Positions 491 through 11,828 are shown, numbered from the stretch's first letter. The stretch: 12,216 nucleotides of DNA from Methanobacteriaceae archaeon (GCA_003558085.1 PWMT01000095.1:1-12216), one strand, 5' to 3'. The notes: generated by a model from the sequence alone, not told the origin. Translations and numbers: made by a program.

Positions 491-1126
491 ATGAAGGTTA
501 AAGAAATTATGGATAAGGATTTTGTAAGTGTTTCTCCTCAGCAGGGACTGGAGGAAGCATCTCTAAAGATGGAGAAATATAGAAAATTTACCACTCCTGT
601 AGTTGATGAGAATATGAAATTAATCGGATGGATCACTACCCTGGATATTACCCGTGGATTCAGGGAAGGTAAAGAAACCATTCAAGAGATTATGCATAAC
701 AAGCAATCTGTACATCATGTCCATGAAAATGATCCTGCTCGTTTAGCTGTTTTAGAGTCAGCTAAACATAAATTAGTTAGCATGCCAGTTTTAAATGATG
801 AGGGTATTGTAGTGGGTCTGGTGCGCACCTATGATATTGTGGAAAACTTATCCCAGCTCTATGAAATCAAGGTTTATAAAATATTCAAGGCCATGGAACA
901 GGAACTTAAGGGAGTAAGCTGGGATGAACTGATGGAAGCTGCAGCTATCATCACCCGTAGAAGAACCGGCCATCGGATCAAACCAGAAGAATACGAACAA
1001 AGAATAAGAGAATCCACTTTCGGTGAAGCTATATGGGCTACCGGGGGTTTGGAAAAATTCTTTGTGGGTTTAATTGCTATTGGAGAACTGGTTATTGCTC
1101 GTAAAGTGGCTAGGGCTCGAAAATAG
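491..1126 (+). CDS. CBS domain-containing protein (CBS pair plus ~85-aa C-terminal domain of unknown function)
   Basis: Two CBS signatures: MKVKEIM...TPVVDENMKLIGWITTLDI and IQEIM...MPVLNDEGIVVGLVRTYDI. GGAG SD at 477-480. Confidence 0.9.
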   Translation: MKVKEIMDKDFVSVSPQQGLEEASLKMEKYRKFTTPVVDENMKLIGWITTLDITRGFREGKETIQEIMHNKQSVHHVHENDPARLAVLESAKHKLVSMPVLNDEGIVVGLVRTYDIVENLSQLYEIKVYKIFKAMEQELKGVSWDELMEAAAIITRRRTGHRIKPEEYEQRIRESTFGEAIWATGGLEKFFVGLIAIGELVIARKVARARK

Positions 1127-2207: not shown

Positions 2208-3584
2208 ATGCTCTATATCTACAACACCCTAAGCCAGAGAAGGGAACCATTTCAAGCGGTTAAGGATCAAGTAGTAAAACTATTCGTCTGCGGCCCCACC
2301 GTCTATGAAGATGCTCATATAGGCCATGCCCGAACTTACATCTCCTTTGACATAATTAAACGTTATCTTCAATATAAGGGGTATACGGTTTATTATCTGC
2401 AAAATATTACCGATATTGATGATAAAATCATTAAAAGATCCCAAAAACTAGGCTTAGATCCCCTTAAATTAGCCCGCAAATATGAAAAAAGATACCATCA
2501 GGATATGGAAAAATTAGGGGTTAACCAGGTTAACTTTTTCCCCCGGGCCAGTGAACATATAGATCAAATAATAGGCCAGATTCAAACCTTAATCCAGAAG
2601 GGATATGCTTACCCCACTCCGAGGGGTGTTTACTTCGATATCAGTCAATTTCCAGATTATGGTAAACTTTCCCGGCGTAAAGTGGAGGACTTGAATGTAT
2701 CCCGTCTTGAAACTGATCCTTATAAAAAAAATCAAGGAGATTTTGCTTTATGGAAACTAAGGGATGAGGGGCCACTATGGGATTCTCCTTGGGGTTCAGG
2801 TAGGCCGGGGTGGCATATTGAAGATACTGCTATTACCGAAGAATATCTAGGCTCCCAATATGATATTCATGGTGGTGGATTGGATCTTATATTCCCCCAT
2901 CATGAAGCAGAAATAGCGCAGATGGAATCAGCCTCAGGCAAAATTCCCATGGTAGCTTATTGGATGCACACCGGTTTTTTAAATGTTTCTGGAGAAAAGA
3001 TGTCCAAATCTCTGGGAAATTTTATCACCATCCGGGATTTATTGGAAAACCACCACTCCCAGGTCTTCCGTTTTTTCGTATTATCCACTCACTACCGCAG
3101 CCCCATCGATTTTTCCATAAAAGCATTGGAACAATCTGCTAAAAGTTTTACTAGAATAAAAAAATTAGTTAATCGACTCTACCAATTATTAGATGAAGAT
3201 TTAAAGGAAAGTGCTGAGGAACCCTTCCAGGGATGGTTACAAGAATATAAAGAACAGTTTTTCCATTATATGGATCAAGATTTTAACACACCCCCGGCCC
3301 TGGCAGCAGTGTTTAAATTAACCCGCAAAATAAATCAGGCCTTAGCACAAACTAAACCATCACTACCTGTCTTAAAGAATATATTATCATTCTTCCATGA
3401 TTTAGAAGAAATTCTGGGTTTGCAATTACGAGCAGAAGATGAAGAGCACCGCGTGGATGAATCAGCAGAATTATTAGAACTTATTCTACATATCCGTGAA
3501 AAATTACGTGAAGAGAAAGAATGGGAATTAGCTGATAAGATCAGAGCTAAATTAATAGATTTAGGATATGAAATTCAAGATTGA
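2208..3584 (+). CDS. cysS: Cysteine--tRNA ligase (class I CysRS)
   Basis: CGPTVY, HIGH, NITDIDDKII, DFALWK, GRPGWHIE, DIHGGGLDLIFPHHEAE, KMSKSLGN, DFNTP and the C-terminal ADKIR anticodon-binding motif. Confidence 0.98.
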   Translation: MLYIYNTLSQRREPFQAVKDQVVKLFVCGPTVYEDAHIGHARTYISFDIIKRYLQYKGYTVYYLQNITDIDDKIIKRSQKLGLDPLKLARKYEKRYHQDMEKLGVNQVNFFPRASEHIDQIIGQIQTLIQKGYAYPTPRGVYFDISQFPDYGKLSRRKVEDLNVSRLETDPYKKNQGDFALWKLRDEGPLWDSPWGSGRPGWHIEDTAITEEYLGSQYDIHGGGLDLIFPHHEAEIAQMESASGKIPMVAYWMHTGFLNVSGEKMSKSLGNFITIRDLLENHHSQVFRFFVLSTHYRSPIDFSIKALEQSAKSFTRIKKLVNRLYQLLDEDLKESAEEPFQGWLQEYKEQFFHYMDQDFNTPPALAAVFKLTRKINQALAQTKPSLPVLKNILSFFHDLEEILGLQLRAEDEEHRVDESAELLELILHIREKLREEKEWELADKIRAKLIDLGYEIQD

Positions 3585-3623
3585 TTAGAGCAAGTTTGTT
3601 TTAACACCCACCAACTTTAATTA

Positions 3624-3640
3624 ACAATAGTTATATATAT
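3624..3640 (+). promoter_or_regulatory. Distal TATA-box candidate upstream of hdrC
   Basis: ACAATAG-TTATATATAT, about 310 nt upstream of hdrC. Confidence 0.4.
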
Positions 3641-3805
3641 TCCTAGTGGACATATAATAGTAATAATAACGTGAACTGGTTTTTGATGATAAAGGTGGAT
3701 AGGATTACTTTAAGAGGAAAATTATTACGACTATTTCTTATAAAAAATATTATTTTCTGACTATAAACTAATAATACATCCTTCTAATCCAGTTTAAAAA
3801 TTTAA

Positions 3806-3818
3806 GAAAGTATATAAA
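3806..3818 (+). promoter_or_regulatory. Proximal BRE/TATA promoter of hdrCBA
   Basis: GAAAG-TATATAAA is a good BRE+TATA match ~135 nt upstream of the likely hdrC start. Confidence 0.55.
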
Positions 3819-3949
3819 TTATAGTTAGTTAATACTCTTTACCCGAAAACTATAATGATACTAACAGTCACCTGCTAGTGGAGAGTGAGAAGGAAATCTA
3901 AATATAGTCCAACTCGAGTTCAAAAAAAAAAATGGAGAGGCGAGTTCCC

Positions 3950-4537
3950 ATGATGGAGAAAAAACATAAAAAATCTCAGCACTCTTTAGTTAGAGAAATT
4001 AAAGATAATCTTAGAGCATCTCCTGATCTGGGAATAAAAAGATGCATGCAATGTGGTTTATGTACATCTAATTGTCCTGCAGCCCGACATAGTGATTATG
4101 ATCCCCGGGAGATGGTGAAAAAAGTCTTGGATAATAACTTAGAAGTTCTGGATAATCCTGATATTTGGAACTGTTTCTACTGCTATACCTGTGCCAGTAA
4201 CTGCCCAGTTAATAACAGTCCCTCCCTAATCAACCAGATCTTAAGAGAAAAAATCTTAAATACTGGTGGAAACGTTTCCCGGGTCGCTGAATTTATAGAA
4301 TTTGGATATAATTATGTAGAAAAGGGAGTGGGAACCATACCTTCCACTTTTTTCCAGGATCTAGTTGATGATTTCGGGGAAGATTACCCGAAATTAAAAC
4401 ATGATTTACCTGATATCCGCCGGAAATTAGGTTTAAAAGAATATAATCTTAAAGGTGAAGCAGCAGCAGAAGTAAAAAATATTCTTAAAGCTTCTGGATT
4501 CACCCAGAGACTGGAAAAATTAAAAAAAATAGCTTGA
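3950..4537 (+). CDS. hdrC: CoB-CoM heterodisulfide reductase subunit C (2x[4Fe-4S])
   Basis: CMQCGLCTSNCP and IWNCFYCYTCASNCP motifs; adjacent to hdrB and hdrA. The ORF is open from 3932, but GGAGAGG (3934-3940) favours ATG 3950 or 3953. Confidence 0.93.
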   Translation: MMEKKHKKSQHSLVREIKDNLRASPDLGIKRCMQCGLCTSNCPAARHSDYDPREMVKKVLDNNLEVLDNPDIWNCFYCYTCASNCPVNNSPSLINQILREKILNTGGNVSRVAEFIEFGYNYVEKGVGTIPSTFFQDLVDDFGEDYPKLKHDLPDIRRKLGLKEYNLKGEAAAEVKNILKASGFTQRLEKLKKIA

Positions 4538-4640
4538 ATCAAATAGTTTTAGTATTAGACTATGATAAGTTTTATCCTCCTATTTAAAAAAGGTTCATTA
4601 ATATTCTCTTTTAGAAAAAAAATTAGAGGTATTGATATAG

Positions 4641-5576
4641 ATGAAAAACATACCCCATGAAAATATCCTTTTATTTAAAAGCTGCCTGGTTAATGTAGAA
4701 TATCCTGGAGTGGAGTCTTCTACCCGGTATCTTTTTGATCATTTAGGAGTGGAATATCAGGTTCATCCTGACCAATCCTGCTGCACTGGTCTGGGATATT
4801 ATTATGATCTATTTGACCAGTATTCTACTCTGGCCCTGGCTGCCCGTAATTTTTACCTAGCCCGAGAAAGTGAACATACTAATATCACCACTCTATGCGC
4901 CACCTGTTATGCTATACTAAAAAAATCACTCCATCTGCTTAACTCGAATGAAAAGGCTCGCAGCAAAGTTAATGAAATATTAGAGGAAGCTGGACTCTCC
5001 CATATGAAATACGAGGCAAATATGTTAAGTAGTGAAGAAAATATCTTCCATATAGTGGAAGTTTTATATTCTAAACGAGAGCAAATATCCCAAAAAATTA
5101 AAAAAGACTTTTCCAAGATTAAAGTGGCAAGTCACCATGCCTGTCACTACTGCAAAATTTATCCAGAACAGTCTATCACTTCCTCACGCAATCCCATGCT
5201 CTTGGACGAACTGGCAGATTGTTGCGGGGTAAAGGTAGTGGATTGGTATGATTTTAAAAAAGCAACTTGTGGAGCAGGTTTCAGTCAGAGATTCGCTAAC
5301 CGTGATCTTTCCTTATCAGCCACCCGGGATAAACTATATGCTCTGGAAGGAAAAGCAGATGTTCTGCTCCATATGTGCCCTAACTGTCAGATGCAATTCG
5401 ATCGTTATCAACCAGTACTGGAAAAAGAATTAGGTCGAAAAATAGGTTTAATACACTTGAATATAGCCCAATTAGCAGCTTTAGCTATGGGGGCAGATCC
5501 CTATGAGGTGGTAGGAATACAAACCCACACCATACCTGTAGAGGATCTTATAGATAAGATTAAGGATATTGAATAA
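4641..5576 (+). CDS. hdrB: CoB-CoM heterodisulfide reductase subunit B (CCG-domain protein, variant type)
   Basis: First CCG domain SCL...SCCTG...CATC; second HACH...TCGAG...CPNCQMQFD. GAGGT SD. Confidence 0.93.
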   Translation: MKNIPHENILLFKSCLVNVEYPGVESSTRYLFDHLGVEYQVHPDQSCCTGLGYYYDLFDQYSTLALAARNFYLARESEHTNITTLCATCYAILKKSLHLLNSNEKARSKVNEILEEAGLSHMKYEANMLSSEENIFHIVEVLYSKREQISQKIKKDFSKIKVASHHACHYCKIYPEQSITSSRNPMLLDELADCCGVKVVDWYDFKKATCGAGFSQRFANRDLSLSATRDKLYALEGKADVLLHMCPNCQMQFDRYQPVLEKELGRKIGLIHLNIAQLAALAMGADPYEVVGIQTHTIPVEDLIDKIKDIE

Positions 5577-5664: not shown

Positions 5665-8046
5665 ATGATTATAATGACTAATAACTCTCCCCAAGTAGAA
5701 TACATACCTCCGGTATACAAGGAAAAACGCCTGAGGCATAGTAAAAATCCAGATAAAATAGGGGTTTTCCTATGTCGCTGTGGAGATAATATTTCCAATA
5801 TTATTGATATGGAAAAATTAAAATCCAGTATTAAAGCAGACTTTGTAGCTGAATTTGAAAATCTCTGCTCTATTAACTGCAGGAGACATATCCGAGAGGA
5901 AATAATTGAACATGATTTAGATCGGGTGGCTATAGTAGCCTGCTCACCATTAACCCATCTTAAAACTTTTCAAAATTATGCAGATCCCTTAAATCCCCAC
6001 ATGGTGGAGATGATTAACTTACGGGAGCAGTGTTCCTGGGTGCATACTGATCAGGAGAAAGCCACTAAAAAGGCGATTGAAGTAACCCGGGCGGGAATAG
6101 AAAAATTGAAAAATGCCCAGGCTCTTGATAAGATAATCCGTCAAACTGAAAAAAGCGCTGCTATATTTGGTGGGGGTATTTCCGGGATTACCGCTGCGTT
6201 ATCTTTGGCTAATCAAGGCATCAAAAGTTGTATTATAGAAAAAAAACCTACCATTGGTGGTAATATGGTTAAGATTGGTAAGGTTTTCTCTCCTGAAAAA
6301 TTAGCAGAAGAATGTGCATTATGTATTTTAAACCCCATCATTAACGAGGTTATCAACCATAAAAACATTCACATCATGACCAGAACCAATCTACTGCGCG
6401 CTGGAAGAAAAGCCACTCATTTTAAACTTATTTTGGAAAAAGATACCGGACTAGTACATGAAGAACGTTGCATTGCCTGTGGAAAATGTGCAGAGGTCTG
6501 TCCGGTGGAGGTTCCTGATGAATGGAATCAGAAAATGACCACTCGTAAGGCTATCTATAAAACCTTCCCCCAGGCCGTCCCTGATGTTTACACTATTGAT
6601 AGGGAAAACTGTATAGAATGTGGAATGTGTGCAGAGGCCTGTAAAATGGGTGCTATTGATTTTAAATTAAAACCGGAGGTTATTCCCTTCCAGGCAGGGA
6701 ATATTATCATCGCCACTGGCCATGAAAATTATGATTTAAATAAACGTCCAGAATATGGTTACCACCGCTTTGACGATGTGATATCCCAGATGGATTTATC
6801 CCGTATCTTAGGAGTTAATGGTCCTACCCAGGGTGAACTTTTACGAATTTCTGATGGAAAGGTCCCGGATAAAGTGGTGATGATCCAATGTACTGGATCC
6901 CGGGATGAAAAAGCCGATGGTAAACGTTACTGCTCTAAAGTTTGCTGCATGATTGCCTTAAAACATGCCAGCATCATCCGGGAACATTATCCCGATACCG
7001 AAGTAGTGATATGTTACACTGACCTGCGTACGGTGGGCATGTATGAGAATTATCTGCGCTATGTACAGGATAAGGGCCTTAAATTAATAAGGGGAAGGCC
7101 GGGTGAGGTAAGTAAAAAGGATGGTAAATTAGTGGTGCGGGTGGAGGATACCCTGGAAGGAAAACCATTGGATATTGAAACCGATATGGTTGTATTATCA
7201 GAGGCTATTGAACCCTCCGCAGGTACCATGCGTATTGCCCGGAAATTAAATGTGGGTATGAATCAGGATCTCTTTATCAAGGAGAAACATGCTAAGATCA
7301 AACCAGTAAATACTGATATGGGGAGAATTTTCGTATGCGGCACTGCCCAGGGACCTAAAGATATAACTGATAGTGTAGCCCAGGCTAATGCTGCGGCGGC
7401 TAAGGTTTCTGAAGAAATAGAATCGGGTACTGAAGCAGAACCACCTGTAGCAGTAATAGAAACATCAAAATGTGATCTGTGTGGTAAATGTAGGAATATC
7501 TGCGGATTTAAAGCTGTCTATAAGGATGAAGAAAATATGGCAGTGGATCCTATGGCATGCCGGGGTTGCGGGGCCTGCGCAGGGCAATGCCCTCAAGAAG
7601 CCATTGAAATTAAAGGAATCAATGACCAGGAACTCTATGCCCAAATCAAAGCTCTTTTAAGTGATAAAGAGGAAGGAGAAATTCGTATATTAGCATTCCT
7701 GGATAATGTGGGTTATACTGCCGCTGATACTATAGGGTACAATCGGATCAACTATCCTGAGGCGATTCGGATTATACGCATACCATCCATCAATCGTATC
7801 ATGTCCCATCATTTAATGTATGCCTTTAATCAGGGTGCAGATGGAATATTAATGGCGGAATATCCTGATGAATGCATGTTAGAAGCTCATAAAGCAAAAA
7901 TAAAAGAATTAACTGAGAAAATAGCAGCTGAAGGCATTCCTAATGATAGATTACGATTCTATAAGGCTTACGCCCCCCACTATCGGGGTTTAAATAAGCA
8001 ATTCCACCGCTTCTATGAGGATATACGCGCAGAAGCTAAAATCTAA
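5665..8046 (+). CDS. hdrA: Heterodisulfide reductase subunit A with fused degenerate MvhD-like C-terminal domain
   Basis: IGVFLCRCG, ACSP, NLREQCSWVH, FAD motif GGGISG, CALC, IQCTGSRD...YCSKVCC, four CxxCxxCxxxC motifs, GPKDI; last ~120 aa resemble MvhD (YPEAIRIIR, AFNQGADG). Start could be 5665 or 5674; no clear SD. Confidence 0.95.
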   Translation: MIIMTNNSPQVEYIPPVYKEKRLRHSKNPDKIGVFLCRCGDNISNIIDMEKLKSSIKADFVAEFENLCSINCRRHIREEIIEHDLDRVAIVACSPLTHLKTFQNYADPLNPHMVEMINLREQCSWVHTDQEKATKKAIEVTRAGIEKLKNAQALDKIIRQTEKSAAIFGGGISGITAALSLANQGIKSCIIEKKPTIGGNMVKIGKVFSPEKLAEECALCILNPIINEVINHKNIHIMTRTNLLRAGRKATHFKLILEKDTGLVHEERCIACGKCAEVCPVEVPDEWNQKMTTRKAIYKTFPQAVPDVYTIDRENCIECGMCAEACKMGAIDFKLKPEVIPFQAGNIIIATGHENYDLNKRPEYGYHRFDDVISQMDLSRILGVNGPTQGELLRISDGKVPDKVVMIQCTGSRDEKADGKRYCSKVCCMIALKHASIIREHYPDTEVVICYTDLRTVGMYENYLRYVQDKGLKLIRGRPGEVSKKDGKLVVRVEDTLEGKPLDIETDMVVLSEAIEPSAGTMRIARKLNVGMNQDLFIKEKHAKIKPVNTDMGRIFVCGTAQGPKDITDSVAQANAAAAKVSEEIESGTEAEPPVAVIETSKCDLCGKCRNICGFKAVYKDEENMAVDPMACRGCGACAGQCPQEAIEIKGINDQELYAQIKALLSDKEEGEIRILAFLDNVGYTAADTIGYNRINYPEAIRIIRIPSINRIMSHHLMYAFNQGADGILMAEYPDECMLEAHKAKIKELTEKIAAEGIPNDRLRFYKAYAPHYRGLNKQFHRFYEDIRAEAKI

Positions 8047-8154
8047 TTTTTATTAAATTAAAATAGAAAAACCTAATTCTATAGGATTAGCAAGCCCATC
8101 ATTTCTATTAAATTAGATTTATACTCCCCCATAATCTGTGGGGGGAGGAGTTTA

Positions 8155-8193
8155 ATGGCAAAGAATATTTATTCCCTACCATCCCATAATTAA
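8155..8193 (+). CDS. Possible 12-codon upstream ORF (MAKNIYSLPSHN)
   Basis: GGAGGAG (8144-8150) 4 nt before ATG 8155; TAA at 8191-8193, just before the next gene's SD. Confidence 0.25.
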   Translation: MAKNIYSLPSHN

Positions 8194-8207
8194 TAATGGT
8201 GATGATC

Positions 8208-8603
8208 ATGGTAATGAATGAGGAGATGATGGATGCTGTTGAAAAAAATCTGGTTTTCATGGCCACTGCCAACCAGCAAGGCATGCCTAATGTAGTTCCC
8301 ATAGGCTTTGCCCGGCCTTTAAATGAAAACACGATCCTGATTGTAGATAACTATATGCATAAGACCATTAAAAATTTAGAGGAGAACCCTCAATTATCCT
8401 TAATTATACAGGATGCTAAATCCTTTCCCTATCAATTTAAGGGTACCGTGGAAATATTTAAATCTGGTAAATACTTTGACGAGGCAGTAGAATGGGCTCA
8501 AAATGTTATGAGCGAATTAGAGCCAAAATCAGCCATATTATTCACGGTAAAAGAGATATATTCAGTAAAGCCCGGTCCACAAGCTGGAGAAAAAATTGCA
8601 TAA
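8208..8603 (+). CDS. Pyridoxamine 5'-phosphate oxidase-like split-barrel flavin (FMN)-binding protein
   Basis: FMATANQQGMPNVVPI...DNYMHKTIKNLEENPQ...YQFKG pattern. The ORF is open from 8196; GGTGA SD (8198-8202) favours ATG 8208. Confidence 0.88.
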   Translation: MVMNEEMMDAVEKNLVFMATANQQGMPNVVPIGFARPLNENTILIVDNYMHKTIKNLEENPQLSLIIQDAKSFPYQFKGTVEIFKSGKYFDEAVEWAQNVMSELEPKSAILFTVKEIYSVKPGPQAGEKIA

Positions 8604-9101
8604 AATTAAAATGAATAGAATATTACTGTTAGGGCCTCAAAAACGGATAAGAAAAGCACCATAATAGTTATAATAAAAATTAAAAGTTCTAAAATTCTAT
8701 TTTAATTCAATCAAGTTAAACTTTAATCAAGCTAAAGTAAAAAAAGAATAAAATATTTTGCAATTGCTTCCTAGAATATTTATAGCCTTATAAGATAAAA
8801 AAATGGTATAAACTGTTCTACCCCCATCCTATAAAATTAAACTATATCTATCTTCCCCACTTTAGAGAATAAATAAATAAACTAAATTTTCACAATCAAT
8901 TAAACTATAACCCTACTACTTTAGTCCTGGAAATTAGGTTTTAACATGATTGGAGTTAAATTATACAGTAATCTAAGGAGTTTTAAATTGAATCTATTAT
9001 GAGCTTAATAATAATTAAGTATAAAATATATAAAATCTAATTCTAAACTAAAGGTTATTAAAATTATTGTTCTATAATTCCGCTATGAGACATTGATTAA
9101 C

Positions 9102-9473
9102 ATGAAAGCACCTTGTGAAATGGTGGTATGGTATGTTATACCCACCATTAGATCAGAACTAGCCAAAGAATTATTTAAACTTGGAATGATACAGAAAGAA
9201 ATAGCAGTTTTACTGGATATAACCCAACCTGCCGTTTCCCAGTACCTAAGTGATAAAAGAGGTAAGGAGCTTGAATTAAACCCAGAAATCTTGGTTTTGA
9301 TTAAAAATCTTGCCAGGGATTTAAATCAAGGAAAGGCAACTACTAAGGATATGGTTTCCCGAACCTGTCAGATCTGTCGAGAAATAAAAAGCTATGATAT
9401 TATCTGCCAGATTCACAAAGAAAAAGATAATGTCCCTCCCAACTGCTCTGTCTGTCTGGATTTAGATAAATAA
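9102..9473 (+). CDS. Archaeal XRE-like HTH transcriptional regulator (COG2522-type) with Cys/His-rich C-terminus
   Basis: PCE...IPTIRSELA...QKEIAVLLDITQPAVSQYLSDKRG HTH; tail CxxC-x9-CxxH-x9-CxxC. ATG 9102 preferred over TTG 9093. Confidence 0.85.
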   Translation: MKAPCEMVVWYVIPTIRSELAKELFKLGMIQKEIAVLLDITQPAVSQYLSDKRGKELELNPEILVLIKNLARDLNQGKATTKDMVSRTCQICREIKSYDIICQIHKEKDNVPPNCSVCLDLDK

Positions 9474-9588: not shown

Positions 9589-11046
9589 ATGTGTGCTATA
9601 GCTGGAATAAGAGACACTGATATTGCCGGTGACCTTAAAAACATGTTGGATAGTATGCAACATAGAGGAAGAGATGGTACTGGCTACTGGATTAAAGGGA
9701 ACCTCATCCAGGGAGAAGTATGTGAAGTGAACATCCCCGGGGCGTCTATAGGAATAGGACATAAACTCCTCTCTATCGTGGGCCGAGAATCATACCAGCC
9801 CCTAATAGATGATAACCTGGTTTTAGTCTGTAATGGTGAAATATACAATTATCAGGAATTGAAAGAGAAATTTGAACTGGAAACCAAGACCGAATCAGAC
9901 TGTGAAGTAATTTTAAAACTAATCTCAAAATTCAGGGAGGATAATCTATTAGAGGCAATAAAAAAAACATTACCCTACCTGGATGGAGATTATGCTTTTG
10001 CCCTCCTAGATGAGGAGAACCTGATACTGGGTAGAGATCCAGTAGGGGTTAAACCACTATATTATGGACAAACACCTTCCCTAAGGTGGGCCTTCGCCTC
10101 AGAAAAAAAGGCCTTATGGAAAGTGGGAATAGAGAAAGTGCAAACCCTACCACCAGGACACTTGCTTTTTAATCAAAATTTGATTCCATTGCAAAAGACC
10201 ATACCCCCATCCTCTAAGAGCAAAACGGATACTAGTAAGAAAATATTAAAATCTGCTCTGGAAAATTCCCTGATTAAATCAGTGCATAAGAGAGTTAAAG
10301 GACTGGAAGAGGTGGGATTAGTATTTTCTGGTGGAGTGGACAGCACACTCCTGGCCTGCCTATTAAAAGATATGGAAATAAATACCACCCTCTATACGGT
10401 GGGAACCCCTAATTCTCCTGATTTAAGTTATGCTCAAAGGGGAGCCGAACTATTAGATTTAAAACTCAAAACTTTTATAGTAGATGAGAATGTGGTGAAA
10501 TCCACATTAAAACCAGTTTTAACTGCTATTGAAGAATTTAATGTGATGAAAATAGGGGTGGGTATGCCCTTGTATTTAGCAGCTCAGCTAGCCTGCAAAG
10601 ATGGAATAAAAGTGGTGCTTACTGGTCAAGGTGCAGATGAACTCTTTGGAGGATACCATCGCTATCTCCAATATTATAGTCGCAGTCTAGAGTTAACCCA
10701 GGAACATTTAAAAAAAGATGTGGAAAGAAGTTATGAGGTTAACCTGCAACGTGATGATGCGGTGACCATGGCCCATGGTGTGGAACTCCGGGTTCCCTAC
10801 TTAGATAGGGAAGTTATAAAAGTGGCTATGGATATACCTATTAAGTATAAAATAAAAGATGAAAAGGATAATCTTCGCAAAAATATACTACGGGAGTTAG
10901 CCCTGGATCGAGGGGTTCCCCCTTTCATTGCACATCGTCCTAAAAAAGCAGCTCAATATGGTTCAGGAATCCATAAGATTTTAATCAAGAAAGTACTTAA
11001 AGATTTTGATGAAGAGTACTTTATCCAAAAACTGAGAGGATTTTAA
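9589..11046 (+). CDS. asnB: Asparagine synthase (glutamine-hydrolysing)
   Basis: N-terminal nucleophile Cys2 (MCAIAG), HRG, NGEIYN, GRDPVGVKPLYY, SGGVDS, GQGADELFGGY, ELRVPYLD. GGTG SD. Confidence 0.95.
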   Translation: MCAIAGIRDTDIAGDLKNMLDSMQHRGRDGTGYWIKGNLIQGEVCEVNIPGASIGIGHKLLSIVGRESYQPLIDDNLVLVCNGEIYNYQELKEKFELETKTESDCEVILKLISKFREDNLLEAIKKTLPYLDGDYAFALLDEENLILGRDPVGVKPLYYGQTPSLRWAFASEKKALWKVGIEKVQTLPPGHLLFNQNLIPLQKTIPPSSKSKTDTSKKILKSALENSLIKSVHKRVKGLEEVGLVFSGGVDSTLLACLLKDMEINTTLYTVGTPNSPDLSYAQRGAELLDLKLKTFIVDENVVKSTLKPVLTAIEEFNVMKIGVGMPLYLAAQLACKDGIKVVLTGQGADELFGGYHRYLQYYSRSLELTQEHLKKDVERSYEVNLQRDDAVTMAHGVELRVPYLDREVIKVAMDIPIKYKIKDEKDNLRKNILRELALDRGVPPFIAHRPKKAAQYGSGIHKILIKKVLKDFDEEYFIQKLRGF

Positions 11047-11339: not shown

Positions 11340-11828
11340 ATGCGAACCAACCTAGTATTGGAACTGCAAGATGTCCCTGGCCAATTAGTAGGGGTTTTAG
11401 ATCCTATCGGAGCTTTAGGAGCTAATATTGTAACGATTATTCACCAAAGGGATGTTAAAACTGAAAGAGGAACTATTCCTGTAGAAATAACTTTAGAGGG
11501 TGATCAGGAAACTCTGGATCGGGTTTTAAATAAACTGGATGAACTGAATATTCATATTAGGGCTGTAGATGGGATAATGTTAAAGGAGAAAATTATCACC
11601 CTCCTTCTGGGTAAAATAATAGACCGGGATGTTAAAGATACCATGGATAAAATAAATCAATTGGAAGGAGTGCGCGTAGCTGACCTGGAATTGAAGATCT
11701 CTGAAAATGATCAGGATTCCTCAGCCAAGATTATAGTAGAAGCAGAATACGGCAACCGGGACTTATTCATGGATAAAATTAATGAAATAGCAGATTTTAA
11801 GGGATTCCAGGTTATCAGTGAAGTTTAA
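11340..11828 (+). CDS. ACT-domain amino-acid-binding protein (putative allosteric regulator of homoserine dehydrogenase)
   Basis: LELQDVPGQL...GANIVTIIH ACT signature; directly upstream of hom. Confidence 0.85.
   Translation: MRTNLVLELQDVPGQLVGVLDPIGALGANIVTIIHQRDVKTERGTIPVEITLEGDQETLDRVLNKLDELNIHIRAVDGIMLKEKIITLLLGKIIDRDVKDTMDKINQLEGVRVADLELKISENDQDSSAKIIVEAEYGNRDLFMDKINEIADFKGFQVISEV

Follow-up and report, generated by a model that had tools for sequence, protein, structure and literature searches.

The stretch of DNA analysed here, in the following termed the window, comprises 12,216 nucleotides of a Methanobacteriaceae archaeon (GCA_003558085.1, PWMT01000095.1:1-12216) and carries the genes hdrC, hdrB and hdrA of a heterodisulfide reductase (Hdr), the 793-amino acid HdrA subunit being fused to a C-terminal MvhD-like domain. 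In this domain, at most one of the four cysteine ligands of the MvhD [2Fe-2S] cluster is left, and the evidence supports the conclusion that a normal Cys4 [2Fe-2S] cluster cannot be bound. Sequence and predicted fold support its assignment as a true MvhD homologue, in which the fold has been kept and the cofactor site lost. Judged from sequence features and from analogy to known systems, the reading we lean to is that the operon would encode a reductase of the HdrA1B1C1 type that is driven by ferredoxin, does not depend on Mvh, probably does not bifurcate and acts on CoM-S-S-CoB, the heterodisulfide of coenzyme M (CoM) and coenzyme B (CoB). In methanogens, energy coupling centres on soluble Hdr enzymes, of which many genomes encode a second set. 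Neither the gene family and its name nor the HdrA-MvhD fusion is new; the family is NCBIfam NF041891, and an original prediction, made from the sequence alone, had rightly supposed that it was not new. The cluster-less character of the domain appears to be previously undescribed, as no statement on the ligand loss, on the replacement by Asp, Ser and Glu, on a coupling with the loss of the residue E356 or on the placement of the operon among CoM genes was found in the passages searched, which cover the text of a subset of the openly available papers.

The MvhD-like domain and its former cluster site

The observation of an HdrA fused to an MvhD-like domain devoid of its [2Fe-2S] cysteines, placed at 7681-8046 by the original prediction, is confirmed. 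Position 7681 is in frame and corresponds to codon 673 (Ile), one residue before 'RILAF', and the peptides quoted at the time are present. The Pfam domain FlpD (PF02662) matches amino acids 675-788 with 79.4 bits against a cut-off of 22.3 (81.7 bits in the scan of the genome). The PDB sequences matched by the last 141 amino acids are MvhD-type chains in six out of six cases and stem from Mvh-Hdr, Fdh-Hdr, Elp-Hdr and related complexes (expect values (E) of 7e-10 to 1e-6). Structure modelling, which had been suggested as a check, led to the same assignment. The AlphaFold2 model of amino acids 655-793, based on a 14-row alignment, has a predicted local distance difference test score (pLDDT) of 89.9 and a predicted template modelling score (pTM) of 0.85. 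In Foldseek, it superposes on the solved chains 5odh_D, 5odc_D, 8rvu_F and 7bkb_F, all of them MvhD or ElpC, with template modelling (TM) scores of 0.77-0.83 and root mean square deviations of 2.2-2.6 Å; these four were the only PDB chains matched at E ≤ 0.001. For the full-length AlphaFold2 model of HdrA, a pLDDT of 87.3 and a pTM of 0.77 were obtained. The domain follows the core at a short distance, with amino acid 667 of HdrA aligning with residue 652 of the 654-residue chain 5odc_A and amino acid 675 with residues 4-6 of the MvhD chains.

For the mapping of the ligands, the cysteines are numbered according to the genome's own MvhD, in which H68 and D71 match the Methanothermobacter marburgensis numbering of a 2026 structure paper (PMC13580544). 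In that paper, Cys16 is described as an 'additional' conserved cysteine between the cluster and the flavin adenine dinucleotide (FAD), from which we infer that C13, C42, C67 and C72 are the four [2Fe-2S] ligands. HMMER alignments to the solved MvhD chains and a hidden Markov model (HMM) derived from canonical MvhDs agree on the replacements, which are Asp at position 13 (D680) and Ser at position 42 (S708), and on the placement of Cys67 in a one-residue gap beside E732. The earlier count of a single Cys within the C-terminal 120 or so amino acids is exact, since amino acids 673-793 contain C737 only. This residue is located at or next to the Cys72 position; an ungapped MAFFT alignment shifts the last stretch by one, so that Cys72 is paired with M738 instead of C737. 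The additional Cys16 (replaced by V682) and His68 of MvhD are missing as well, and in the HMMER alignment E736 is found at the position of Asp71. Among the 150 library matches listed, the canonical MvhDs keep all five cysteines (pattern xCCCCC), as does the genome's own MvhD, and because of this the difference is real and no accident of the alignment. The comparison with MvhD and with HdrA-MvhD fusions, which had also been proposed as a check, gave the same picture, with the ligand cysteines replaced in the fusion HdrA of the window and kept in HdrA2-type fusions.

A family set of 121 proteins was composed of the fusion HdrA, 12 close matches and 108 further matches, all of them containing the FlpD domain. 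Each of these has at most one ligand Cys, and in 92 the domain is entirely free of Cys. C737, which is part of an L-VS-C pattern, recurs in 11 of the 121 members, all close relatives, while Leu, Pro and Ile are the most frequent residues in this column; with such a restricted occurrence, a functional remnant at C737 was ruled out. With a profile of cluster-less domains, 101 further proteins were retrieved, 94 without any ligand Cys and seven with one, and the named members of this wider set belong to Methanocella, Methanomassiliicoccales, Methanoperedenaceae, Bathyarchaeota, Thermoplasmata and Helarchaeota. In a library search with the domain only, the nearest relatives were other cluster-less domains, ahead of the canonical MvhDs.

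Three of the former ligand positions are highly conserved. Asp stands at position 680 in every one of the 121 family members, and 98 of the 108 wider cluster-less fusions have Asp or Glu there. For Ser708, the counts are 120/121 and 108/108, respectively; Glu732 is present in 120/121 family members, with Asp or Glu in 107/108 of the wider fusions. The fourth ligand position is variable. Because conserved Asp, Ser and Glu residues occupy the former ligand positions, the pocket would have been rebuilt and not merely emptied. The side chains of D680, S708 and E732 should meet in one pocket, because the equivalent positions of MvhD all ligate one cluster. It is conceivable, though in our estimate very improbable, that this pocket still binds a metal via Asp680, Ser708, Glu732 and, within the family, His716 (121/121), either as an unusual [2Fe-2S] cluster or as a mononuclear ion, which might be redox-active. 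The near-invariance of the three oxygen donors in the family and the wider clade would be in line with a bound metal, and two buried carboxylates usually need a counter-ion. A hydrogen-bond network would, however, explain this conservation equally well; moreover, the proximity of the side chains is deduced from alignment, the fourth position varies, His716 occurs in only 48 of 108 wider members and, to our knowledge, every [2Fe-2S] cluster described so far has at least one Cys or His ligand.

The view of the domain as the leftover of an earlier MvhD fusion, in decay and without function, is regarded as extremely improbable. The loss of the cofactor ligands could be taken in this sense, as could the fact that, at larger distances, the domain is 43-50% identical as compared to 56-66% for the core. 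Yet the domain is full-length in every full-length family and wider-clade protein examined, contains many invariant columns and is predicted to fold with confidence. Among the nearest relatives, the number of nonsynonymous substitutions per site (dN) of the domain is 0.14-0.20, with the synonymous value (dS) being saturated and the sole computable ratio being 0.13; the corresponding dN of the HdrA core is 0.11-0.18. Because the domain is under purifying selection, it represents a retained cluster-less module, and a pseudogene was ruled out by the intact frame, the family-wide conservation and the low dN at saturated dS. The HdrA tree described below is likewise in keeping with one ancient loss, after which the domain would long have been retained.

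The HdrA core, its relatives and a proposed route of the electrons

Amino acids 30-667 of the fusion HdrA align with residues 4-652 of 5odc_A (E 4.2e-153), and the protein has the thioredoxin-reductase domain that binds FAD as well as the cysteines for six [4Fe-4S] clusters. Counts for the core refer to 119 family rows, the columns being the 26 cysteines of the canonical HdrA encoded elsewhere in the same genome. At 23 of the 26 columns, Cys is kept in 119/119 rows, with two N-terminal columns given at 116-117 and one at 118; C92 of the canonical HdrA is not kept in the family. Also retained is the Cys pair C217-x-x-C220, which lies between the FAD and the MvhD site; the role of this HdrA Cys pair is described in PMC13580544. 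One difference concerns the residue corresponding to E356 of Methanothermococcus thermolithotrophicus HdrA, which is Ala, Gly or Ser in 119/119 family members and never Glu (Ser379 in the window). Both the canonical HdrA of the genome and the HdrA2-type proteins have retained E356. In the published enzyme, K409 touches N5 of the flavin and E356 holds K409, and both residues have been proposed to tell bifurcating from non-bifurcating enzymes (PMC12054007). The counterpart of K409, K433, is invariant in the family. Compared to the canonical bifurcating HdrA (the 665-amino acid copy on contig C117 and 5ODC_A), all domains, the cluster ligands, the Cys pair and the K409 position are shared, whereas the fusion HdrA has an extra C-terminal domain, a replaced E356 and the sequence 'AEEC..C' in place of 'T(N/L)DC..C' before the Cys pair. 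With the free [2Fe-2S] adaptors MvhD, VhuD and ElpC of the Mvh-Hdr, Fdh-Hdr and Elp-Hdr complexes (PDB 5ODC, 7BKB, 8RVU), the C-terminal domain shares the fold and many motifs; unlike these, it is fused to HdrA and devoid of the ligand cysteines, and its C-terminal helix region reads 'Y.P.FRGL' as opposed to 'SASEGEKF' in the genome's own MvhD.

The match to NF041891 covers amino acids 31-789 of the protein and positions 2-760 of the 762-position profile, and the curated NCBI name of this family is ferredoxin:CoB-CoM heterodisulfide reductase subunit HdrA. On the HdrA2 model NF040770, the fusion HdrA reaches 736.1 bits, below the cut-off of 1100, and it does not contain the ligand cysteines; on NF041778 (hetero_SS_HdrA), the score is 832.1 bits, below the cut-off of 1400, and the protein belongs to a sister family on the tree and not to NF041778 itself. 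The free MvhD of this genome reaches 181 bits against the C-terminal portion of the HdrA2 model, compared to 44.5 bits against NF041891 and 19.5 against NF041778.

An unrooted tree was calculated from about 640 HdrA-core residues, with the fused domain excluded, for 39 rows chosen from a larger number available, namely 19 cluster-less fusions, 11 Cys-bearing fusions and nine unfused proteins; it was obtained in the quick mode of IQ-TREE with Shimodaira-Hasegawa-like approximate likelihood ratio test (SH-aLRT) support only. The 19 cluster-less fusions make up one side of a branch with an SH-aLRT value of 98. Within these, a 13-row subclade (SH-aLRT 100) combines the Methanobacteriaceae family including the protein of the window, Methanocella and Methanomassiliicoccales, Methanosarcina HdrA1 and Methanoperedenaceae, and one Helarchaeota protein; all 13 rows have Ala, Gly or Ser at the E356 position. 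The remaining six-row subclade, from Bathyarchaeota and Thermoplasmata (L058, L059, P0020, P0336, P0342, P0323), is cluster-less and keeps E356 together with 'TLDC..C'. Because this group without a cluster retains E356, the loss of the cluster and the loss of E356 would be separate events, and the simplest reading of the tree is one old cluster loss, followed later by the loss of E356. The cluster-less trait is, accordingly, not a peculiarity of Methanobacteriales but, on this tree, the mark of one wide group that includes Methanosarcina HdrA1.

HdrA1B1C1 of Methanosarcina acetivorans (MA3126-MA3128; NF041778, NF041779 and NF041780), which we take to be the enzyme of Enzyme Commission number EC 1.8.7.3, resembles the system of the window in having a fused MvhD-like domain without ligand cysteines and Ala at the E356 position, as read from a Methanosarcina sp. 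protein and not from the M. acetivorans C-terminus itself. It falls into the same 13-row subclade, and the HdrB of the window passes the HdrA1B1C1 model NF041780. The 809-amino acid Methanosarcina protein L052 scores 1540.7 bits on NF041778, has no ligand Cys and contains 'TQMELAR', with Ala at E356. The cut-off of NF041778 was passed in one of 14 control genomes, inferred to be M. acetivorans, and in none of 38 genomes from the phylum of the outgroup genome G040, a lineage unsuited to this purpose. Differences are seen in the overall similarity (the best tblastn segment is 41% identical), in the gene order, which is hdrC-B-A in the genome of the window and hdrA-C-B in Methanosarcina, and in the domain of the Methanosarcina HdrA1 type, which is more degenerate, with Asn and Thr in place of Asp and Ser. 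Furthermore, the host of the window is presumably a cytochrome-free hydrogenotroph without HdrED or Rnf, unlike Methanosarcina.

Published accounts of HdrA1 are partly at variance with these sequences. According to a 2018 review, HdrA1 has no MvhD extension (PMC6019823), whereas the HdrA1-type proteins do carry the domain, albeit without its cluster. In a 2025 survey (PMC12054007, Table S2), the 806-amino acid HdrA of M. acetivorans, which reads 'TQMELAR' in the stored table (the C-termini are absent from it), is pooled in class A2-1 with 770-amino acid Methanobrevibacter proteins of the present family and with HdrA2. This pooling conflicts with the sequences, as the HdrA1-type proteins lack the cluster ligands and HdrA2 keeps them. 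The absence of both the MvhD cysteines and E356 would set the HdrA1 type apart from bifurcating HdrA2-type and canonical enzymes. Together, these two marks would account in structural terms for the absence of bifurcation deduced for HdrA1B1C1 of M. acetivorans and expose a published class that pools unlike proteins, and the question of the electron donor becomes testable in Methanobacterium as well as in gut and rumen Methanobrevibacter.

It could be argued that the enzyme instead works like HdrA2B2C2, with coenzyme F420 in its reduced form (F420H2) binding at the FAD, electrons being bifurcated to ferredoxin and CoM-S-S-CoB, and with the MvhD-like domain only shaping the F420 site. HdrA2B2C2 of M. 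acetivorans (NF040770) bifurcates with F420H2, and the iron content of purified HdrA2 fits the predicted Fe2S2 cluster (PMC5296606); it shares with the fusion HdrA the C-terminal MvhD fusion, corresponding to class A2-1 of PMC12054007, and the same core cofactor motifs, the fusion HdrA having kept K433 and every core cluster. Downstream of hdrA, the window additionally encodes a PNPOx-fold protein that weakly resembles F420-dependent PPOX-class enzymes. On the other hand, the score on the HdrA2 model is far from the cut-off, E356 is lost throughout the family, and true HdrA2-type proteins, exemplified by the 784-amino acid Methanosarcina protein L108 (1339.5 bits on NF040770), keep all MvhD cysteines and E356 and are located on the opposite side of the tree. 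The PNPOx gene, for its part, is found no more than a few kb away from the operon in four of the 13 loci compared and is no conserved neighbour. An HdrA2-like function is, therefore, considered unlikely.

For the favoured ferredoxin-driven reductase, the following route may be envisaged. Because the fusion is nearly direct, the domain would occupy the place of free MvhD on the mobile arm of HdrA. It would keep the MvhD architecture, could not relay electrons from MvhG, Fdh or Elp, and would leave no room for a cluster-bearing MvhD, so that electrons would not enter from the hydrogenase. Reduced ferredoxin would deliver electrons to the clusters of the ferredoxin domains, from where they would pass via FAD and HdrC to HdrB, the site of CoM-S-S-CoB reduction. 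Given the family-wide replacement of E356 by Ser, Ala or Gly, the enzyme would probably be a simple, non-bifurcating ferredoxin:heterodisulfide reductase, whose likely role would be the H2-independent maintenance of CoM and CoB in the reduced state, perhaps as a contribution to CoM homeostasis. The missing E356, the curated name of NF041891 and the physiology of M. acetivorans HdrA1B1C1 all argue for such a hydrogenase-independent enzyme. For the latter, growth and flux data have led to the conclusion of a direct heterodisulfide reduction by reduced ferredoxin, without bifurcation, which uncouples methanogenesis from ATP synthesis (PMC4561719). The interpretation offered in the original prediction is thereby partly supported; the 'plug' blocking hydrogenase input and ferredoxin as the donor are only inferred, and the loss of E356 bears on the mechanism more than the plug idea does.

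Alternatively, the cluster-less domain might serve as a docking adaptor that recruits a donor module, be it Mvh, Frh, Fdh or another partner, with electrons taking another path, for instance via Cys217/Cys220. The confidently predicted MvhD fold and the conservation of surface motifs shared with MvhD ('AAD..G', 'YP..IRIIR', 'GADG') would suit such a function, and Glu736 takes the position of MvhD Asp71, which adjoins an unidentified ligand on the HdrA Cys pair (PMC13580544); the Asp71-aligned position is, however, not conserved in the wider clade. In two of the 13 loci, mvhDGAB lies 2-6 kb from the operon, with mvhD-mvhG-mvhA(-mvhB) on the strand opposite to the fusion hdrA (L027 12693-16738; L032 16272-18500), but this linkage is confined to two related genomes. 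Since the distance from the cluster to FAD is as large as 22 Å even with the cluster in place (PMC13580544), an even wider distance to the clusters of MvhG would have to be spanned without it. A docking function appears quite improbable on balance.

Several points weigh against a ferredoxin-driven, non-bifurcating enzyme. The donor in Methanobacteriaceae would follow from analogy and from a database name; the direct mechanism of M. acetivorans was deduced from physiological modelling and not from an enzyme assay (PMC4561719), and bifurcation continues to be put forward for HdrA1B1C1 in a review (PMC6019823). K433 and the Cys217/Cys220 pair are retained, and, as the cluster loss is separable from the loss of E356, the former need not abolish bifurcation by itself. 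The position of the domain on HdrA is deduced from sequence, and the mvhDGAB genes close to the operon in two of the loci point in another direction. Spending ferredoxin on the heterodisulfide would waste energy in a hydrogenotroph, so that a stand-alone reaction needs a physiological reason. Finally, an altered second CCG motif in HdrB could mean a changed substrate. Whereas the first CCG motif of HdrB is complete, the second one reads T-C-G and is short of one Cys, leaving nine of the ten motif cysteines by which the two non-cubane clusters are bound; the corresponding sequence of the canonical HdrB of the genome is 'MMCCGAGG' (C-C-G), and '[AT]TCGAGF' is found in nine of 12 relatives' loci scanned.

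Second enzyme set, distribution and the link to coenzyme M

The genome, which is 96% complete in 175 contigs, also contains the canonical HdrA (39% identical to the fusion HdrA), a canonical HdrB (TIGR03288, 512.8 bits) and one free MvhD, encoded beside mvhG on another contig. From its gene content, the fusion HdrABC would be a second complete set and not a replacement. Of 41 related genomes including the source, 19 encode a protein above the NF041891 cut-off, to which genome G005 with a protein of 1180 bits is added. All 20 carriers belong to the taxonomic family of the source and account for 20 of its 25 genomes, with the NF041891 family being found in none of 15 genomes from other families of the class; the single outgroup genome carries a different fusion. 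Named NF041891 members are from Methanobacterium, Methanobrevibacter and Methanosphaera.

In the 13 loci compared, hdrA and hdrB are always present and hdrC adjoins them in 12. Beyond these three genes, no conserved neighbour was found in the 13 loci and 10 further ones (one of them a duplicate of L033), and no hydrogenase, Fdh or F420 module is regularly located beside the operon in the loci compared. In six Methanobrevibacter-type genomes, however, hdrC-hdrB-hdrA is inserted between comA plus methanogenesis marker 16 and comD-comE (L023 4419-14408; L024 6470-13260; L025 6763-14131; L049 3377-14288; L050 67-7329; L051 5309-12476). Five loci, among them that of the window, have a cysteinyl-tRNA synthetase gene beside hdrC or upstream of it within a few kb, and a ThiF/MoeB-family E1 enzyme is encoded adjacent or nearby in six; a cysteine desulfurase together with a PatB C-S lyase is found near the operon in one locus, SufBC-like genes in another one. 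Because related genomes share gene order by descent, these counts overstate the independent support.

Marker 16 is the main CoM synthase of M. acetivorans, and in a CoM-starved mutant of this organism hdrABC is induced along with genes for CoM uptake and biosynthesis (2025; PMC12068725). Both this induction and the placement in the CoM cluster are in line with a role of the fusion enzyme in maintaining CoM in its reduced state under scarcity. A phyletic tie between the fusion and marker 16 was looked for across the 41 genomes and was not found; marker 16 exceeds its cut-off in 35 of them, whether or not the fusion is present. Of the five genomes of family f1 without the fusion, three have marker 16 above the cut-off and two (99% and 84% complete) do not.

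The same neighbourhoods could also point to another sulfur substrate, in which case the enzyme would be a ferredoxin-driven reductase for a persulfide, a sulfur carrier or an intermediate of CoM biosynthesis, and not for the CoM-S-S-CoB of energy metabolism. The recurrence of sulfur and thiol genes, the identity of marker 16 and the induction of hdrABC on CoM starvation (PMC12068725), and the Cys missing from the second CCG motif of HdrB are in accordance with this notion. The HdrB of the window nonetheless passes a curated HdrB equivalog model and keeps nine of ten CCG cysteines. Likewise, the neighbourhoods are lineage-specific, the window itself having only the cysteinyl-tRNA synthetase gene nearby, and the near-universal occurrence of marker 16 speaks against a specific tie. 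Plain recycling of the heterodisulfide under scarcity of CoM, which is the authors' own reading in PMC12068725, would explain the CoM link equally well. A different sulfur substrate is, thus, a weaker alternative to CoM recycling and is not expected to be correct.

Going beyond the single enzyme, a broader scenario may be sketched, which we hold to be doubtful at present. One old HdrA branch, now comprising Methanobacteriaceae, Methanosarcina HdrA1, Methanocella, Methanomassiliicoccales, Methanoperedenaceae, Helarchaeota and Bathyarchaeota, would have fused MvhD, lost the cluster once and rebuilt the site into an Asp-Ser-Glu pocket for a cation or small ligand; in a sub-branch, E356 would then have been lost, giving rise to a one-way, ferredoxin-burning reductase for CoM homeostasis. 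Such a history would be compatible with the location of the operon inside the comA/CoM synthase/comDE cluster of the Methanobrevibacter type and with the induction of the Methanosarcina counterpart by CoM starvation. If it applied, the current class 'type Ia / A2-1' would hold two mechanistically different enzymes. The link to CoM genes suggests a role in thiol homeostasis, which could matter for methane mitigation aimed at CoM metabolism.

Gene order and further observations in the window

The features of the window are listed in Table 1. With spacers of 103 and 88 bases, hdrC-hdrB-hdrA reads as a single operon. The translation of hdrA is free of internal stops, the stop codon being located at 8044-8046.

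Table 1. Genes, domains and individual residues of the window
Feature	Position	Strand	Evidence or remark
CBS-domain gene	491-1126	+	
Cysteinyl-tRNA synthetase gene	2208-3584	+	
hdrC-like gene, 201 amino acids, first operon gene	3932-4537	+	NF041890 hdrC_Methbact, 247.5 bits (just under cut-off of 270); Fer4 dicluster Pfam matches
hdrB-like gene, 311 amino acids, catalytic CCG-domain subunit	4641-5576	+	NF041780 hetero_SS_HdrB, 511.8 bits (above cut-off of 450); Pfam CCG, E 2.6e-18; alignment to 8rvu_b, E 7.1e-51
HdrB Thr209-Cys210, second CCG motif (T-C-G)	5265-5270	+	'kkatcgagf' versus 'MMCCGAGG' of 8rvu_b
hdrA fused to MvhD-like domain, 793 amino acids	5665-8046	+	NF041891 hdrA_Methbact, 1355.7 bits (above cut-off of 1300)
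HdrA core, amino acids 31-667: N-terminal cluster domain, FAD/thioredoxin-reductase domain, inserted ferredoxin domain, C-terminal ferredoxin domain	5755-7665	+	alignment to 5odc_A
C217-x-x-C220, Cys pair between FAD and MvhD site	6313-6324	+	aligns with 'DCSIC' of 5odc_A; kept in 119/119
S379 at E356 position of M. thermolithotrophicus HdrA	6799-6801	+	'MDLSRI' versus 'LELERM'
K433, K409 equivalent, contacts N5 of FAD	6961-6963	+	kept in 119/119
Linker, amino acids 668-674, about 7 residues	7666-7686	+	pLDDT about 89-94 in full-length model
MvhD-like (FlpD) domain, cluster-less, amino acids 675-788	7687-8028	+	PF02662, E 2.9e-22
D680 at ligand Cys13 position	7702-7704	+	HMMER and HMM alignments
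S708 at ligand Cys42 position	7786-7788	+	HMMER and HMM alignments
E732 at or one residue before ligand Cys67	7858-7860	+	alignments differ by one residue
C737, sole Cys of domain ('YPDECM'), at or next to ligand Cys72	7873-7875	+	HMMER alignment
PNPOx-fold gene	8196-8603	+	135 amino acids; F420-dependent PPOX-class similarity, E 3e-8 (below cut-off)
Small HTH gene	9093-9473	+	
Asparagine-synthase-like gene	9589-11046	+	
ACT-domain gene	11340-11828	+	

At the N-terminus of HdrA, amino acids 1-27 have a pLDDT below 50, and the NF041891 profile match begins at amino acid 31 (5665-5754 in the window). The true start may be the second in-frame ATG (codon 4), or the N-terminal tail may be disordered.

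Contigs from one metatranscriptomic library, matching at 95% or more and mostly at 99% or more, fall on hdrC (4037-4436), hdrB (5300-5564) and hdrA (5736-5882, 6752-7035, 7152-7321, 7401-7723); positions 3400-3930, 4462-5169, 6055-6585 and 7825-8700 are uncovered, and these parts are uninformative. Because such libraries can contain DNA, the contigs give only a weak hint that the operon is transcribed. Metagenome runs bearing the labels salt lake, soda lake and alkali sediment contain DNA nearly identical to that of the window.

In close relatives (L029 12308-16263; L030 12189-16069), the cysteinyl-tRNA synthetase gene and hdrC are separated by two genes, one for a ThiF/MoeB-family adenylyltransferase and the other for a GMC-like FAD oxidoreductase. 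The same interval of the window (3585-3931) consists of about 350 non-coding bases, both genes being missing from that position. Nitrogenase-like genes of the NifH, NifD/K and Nitro_FeMo-Co types are found about 5-8 kb from the operon in four relatives, L022 (485-3390, 3667-4008), L028, L030 and L031.

Downstream of hdrA, the A+T-rich spacer before the PNPOx-fold gene contains a G+C-rich inverted repeat (CTCCCCC ... GGGGGGAG) at 8120-8150, which could be a transcript end or a binding site. The HTH protein has a Cys-rich C-terminal tail with two CxxC pairs, and in one relative a homologue (173 bits) is encoded directly beside hdrC (L033 12416-12796); the HTH protein might regulate the operon in response to thiols or metals.

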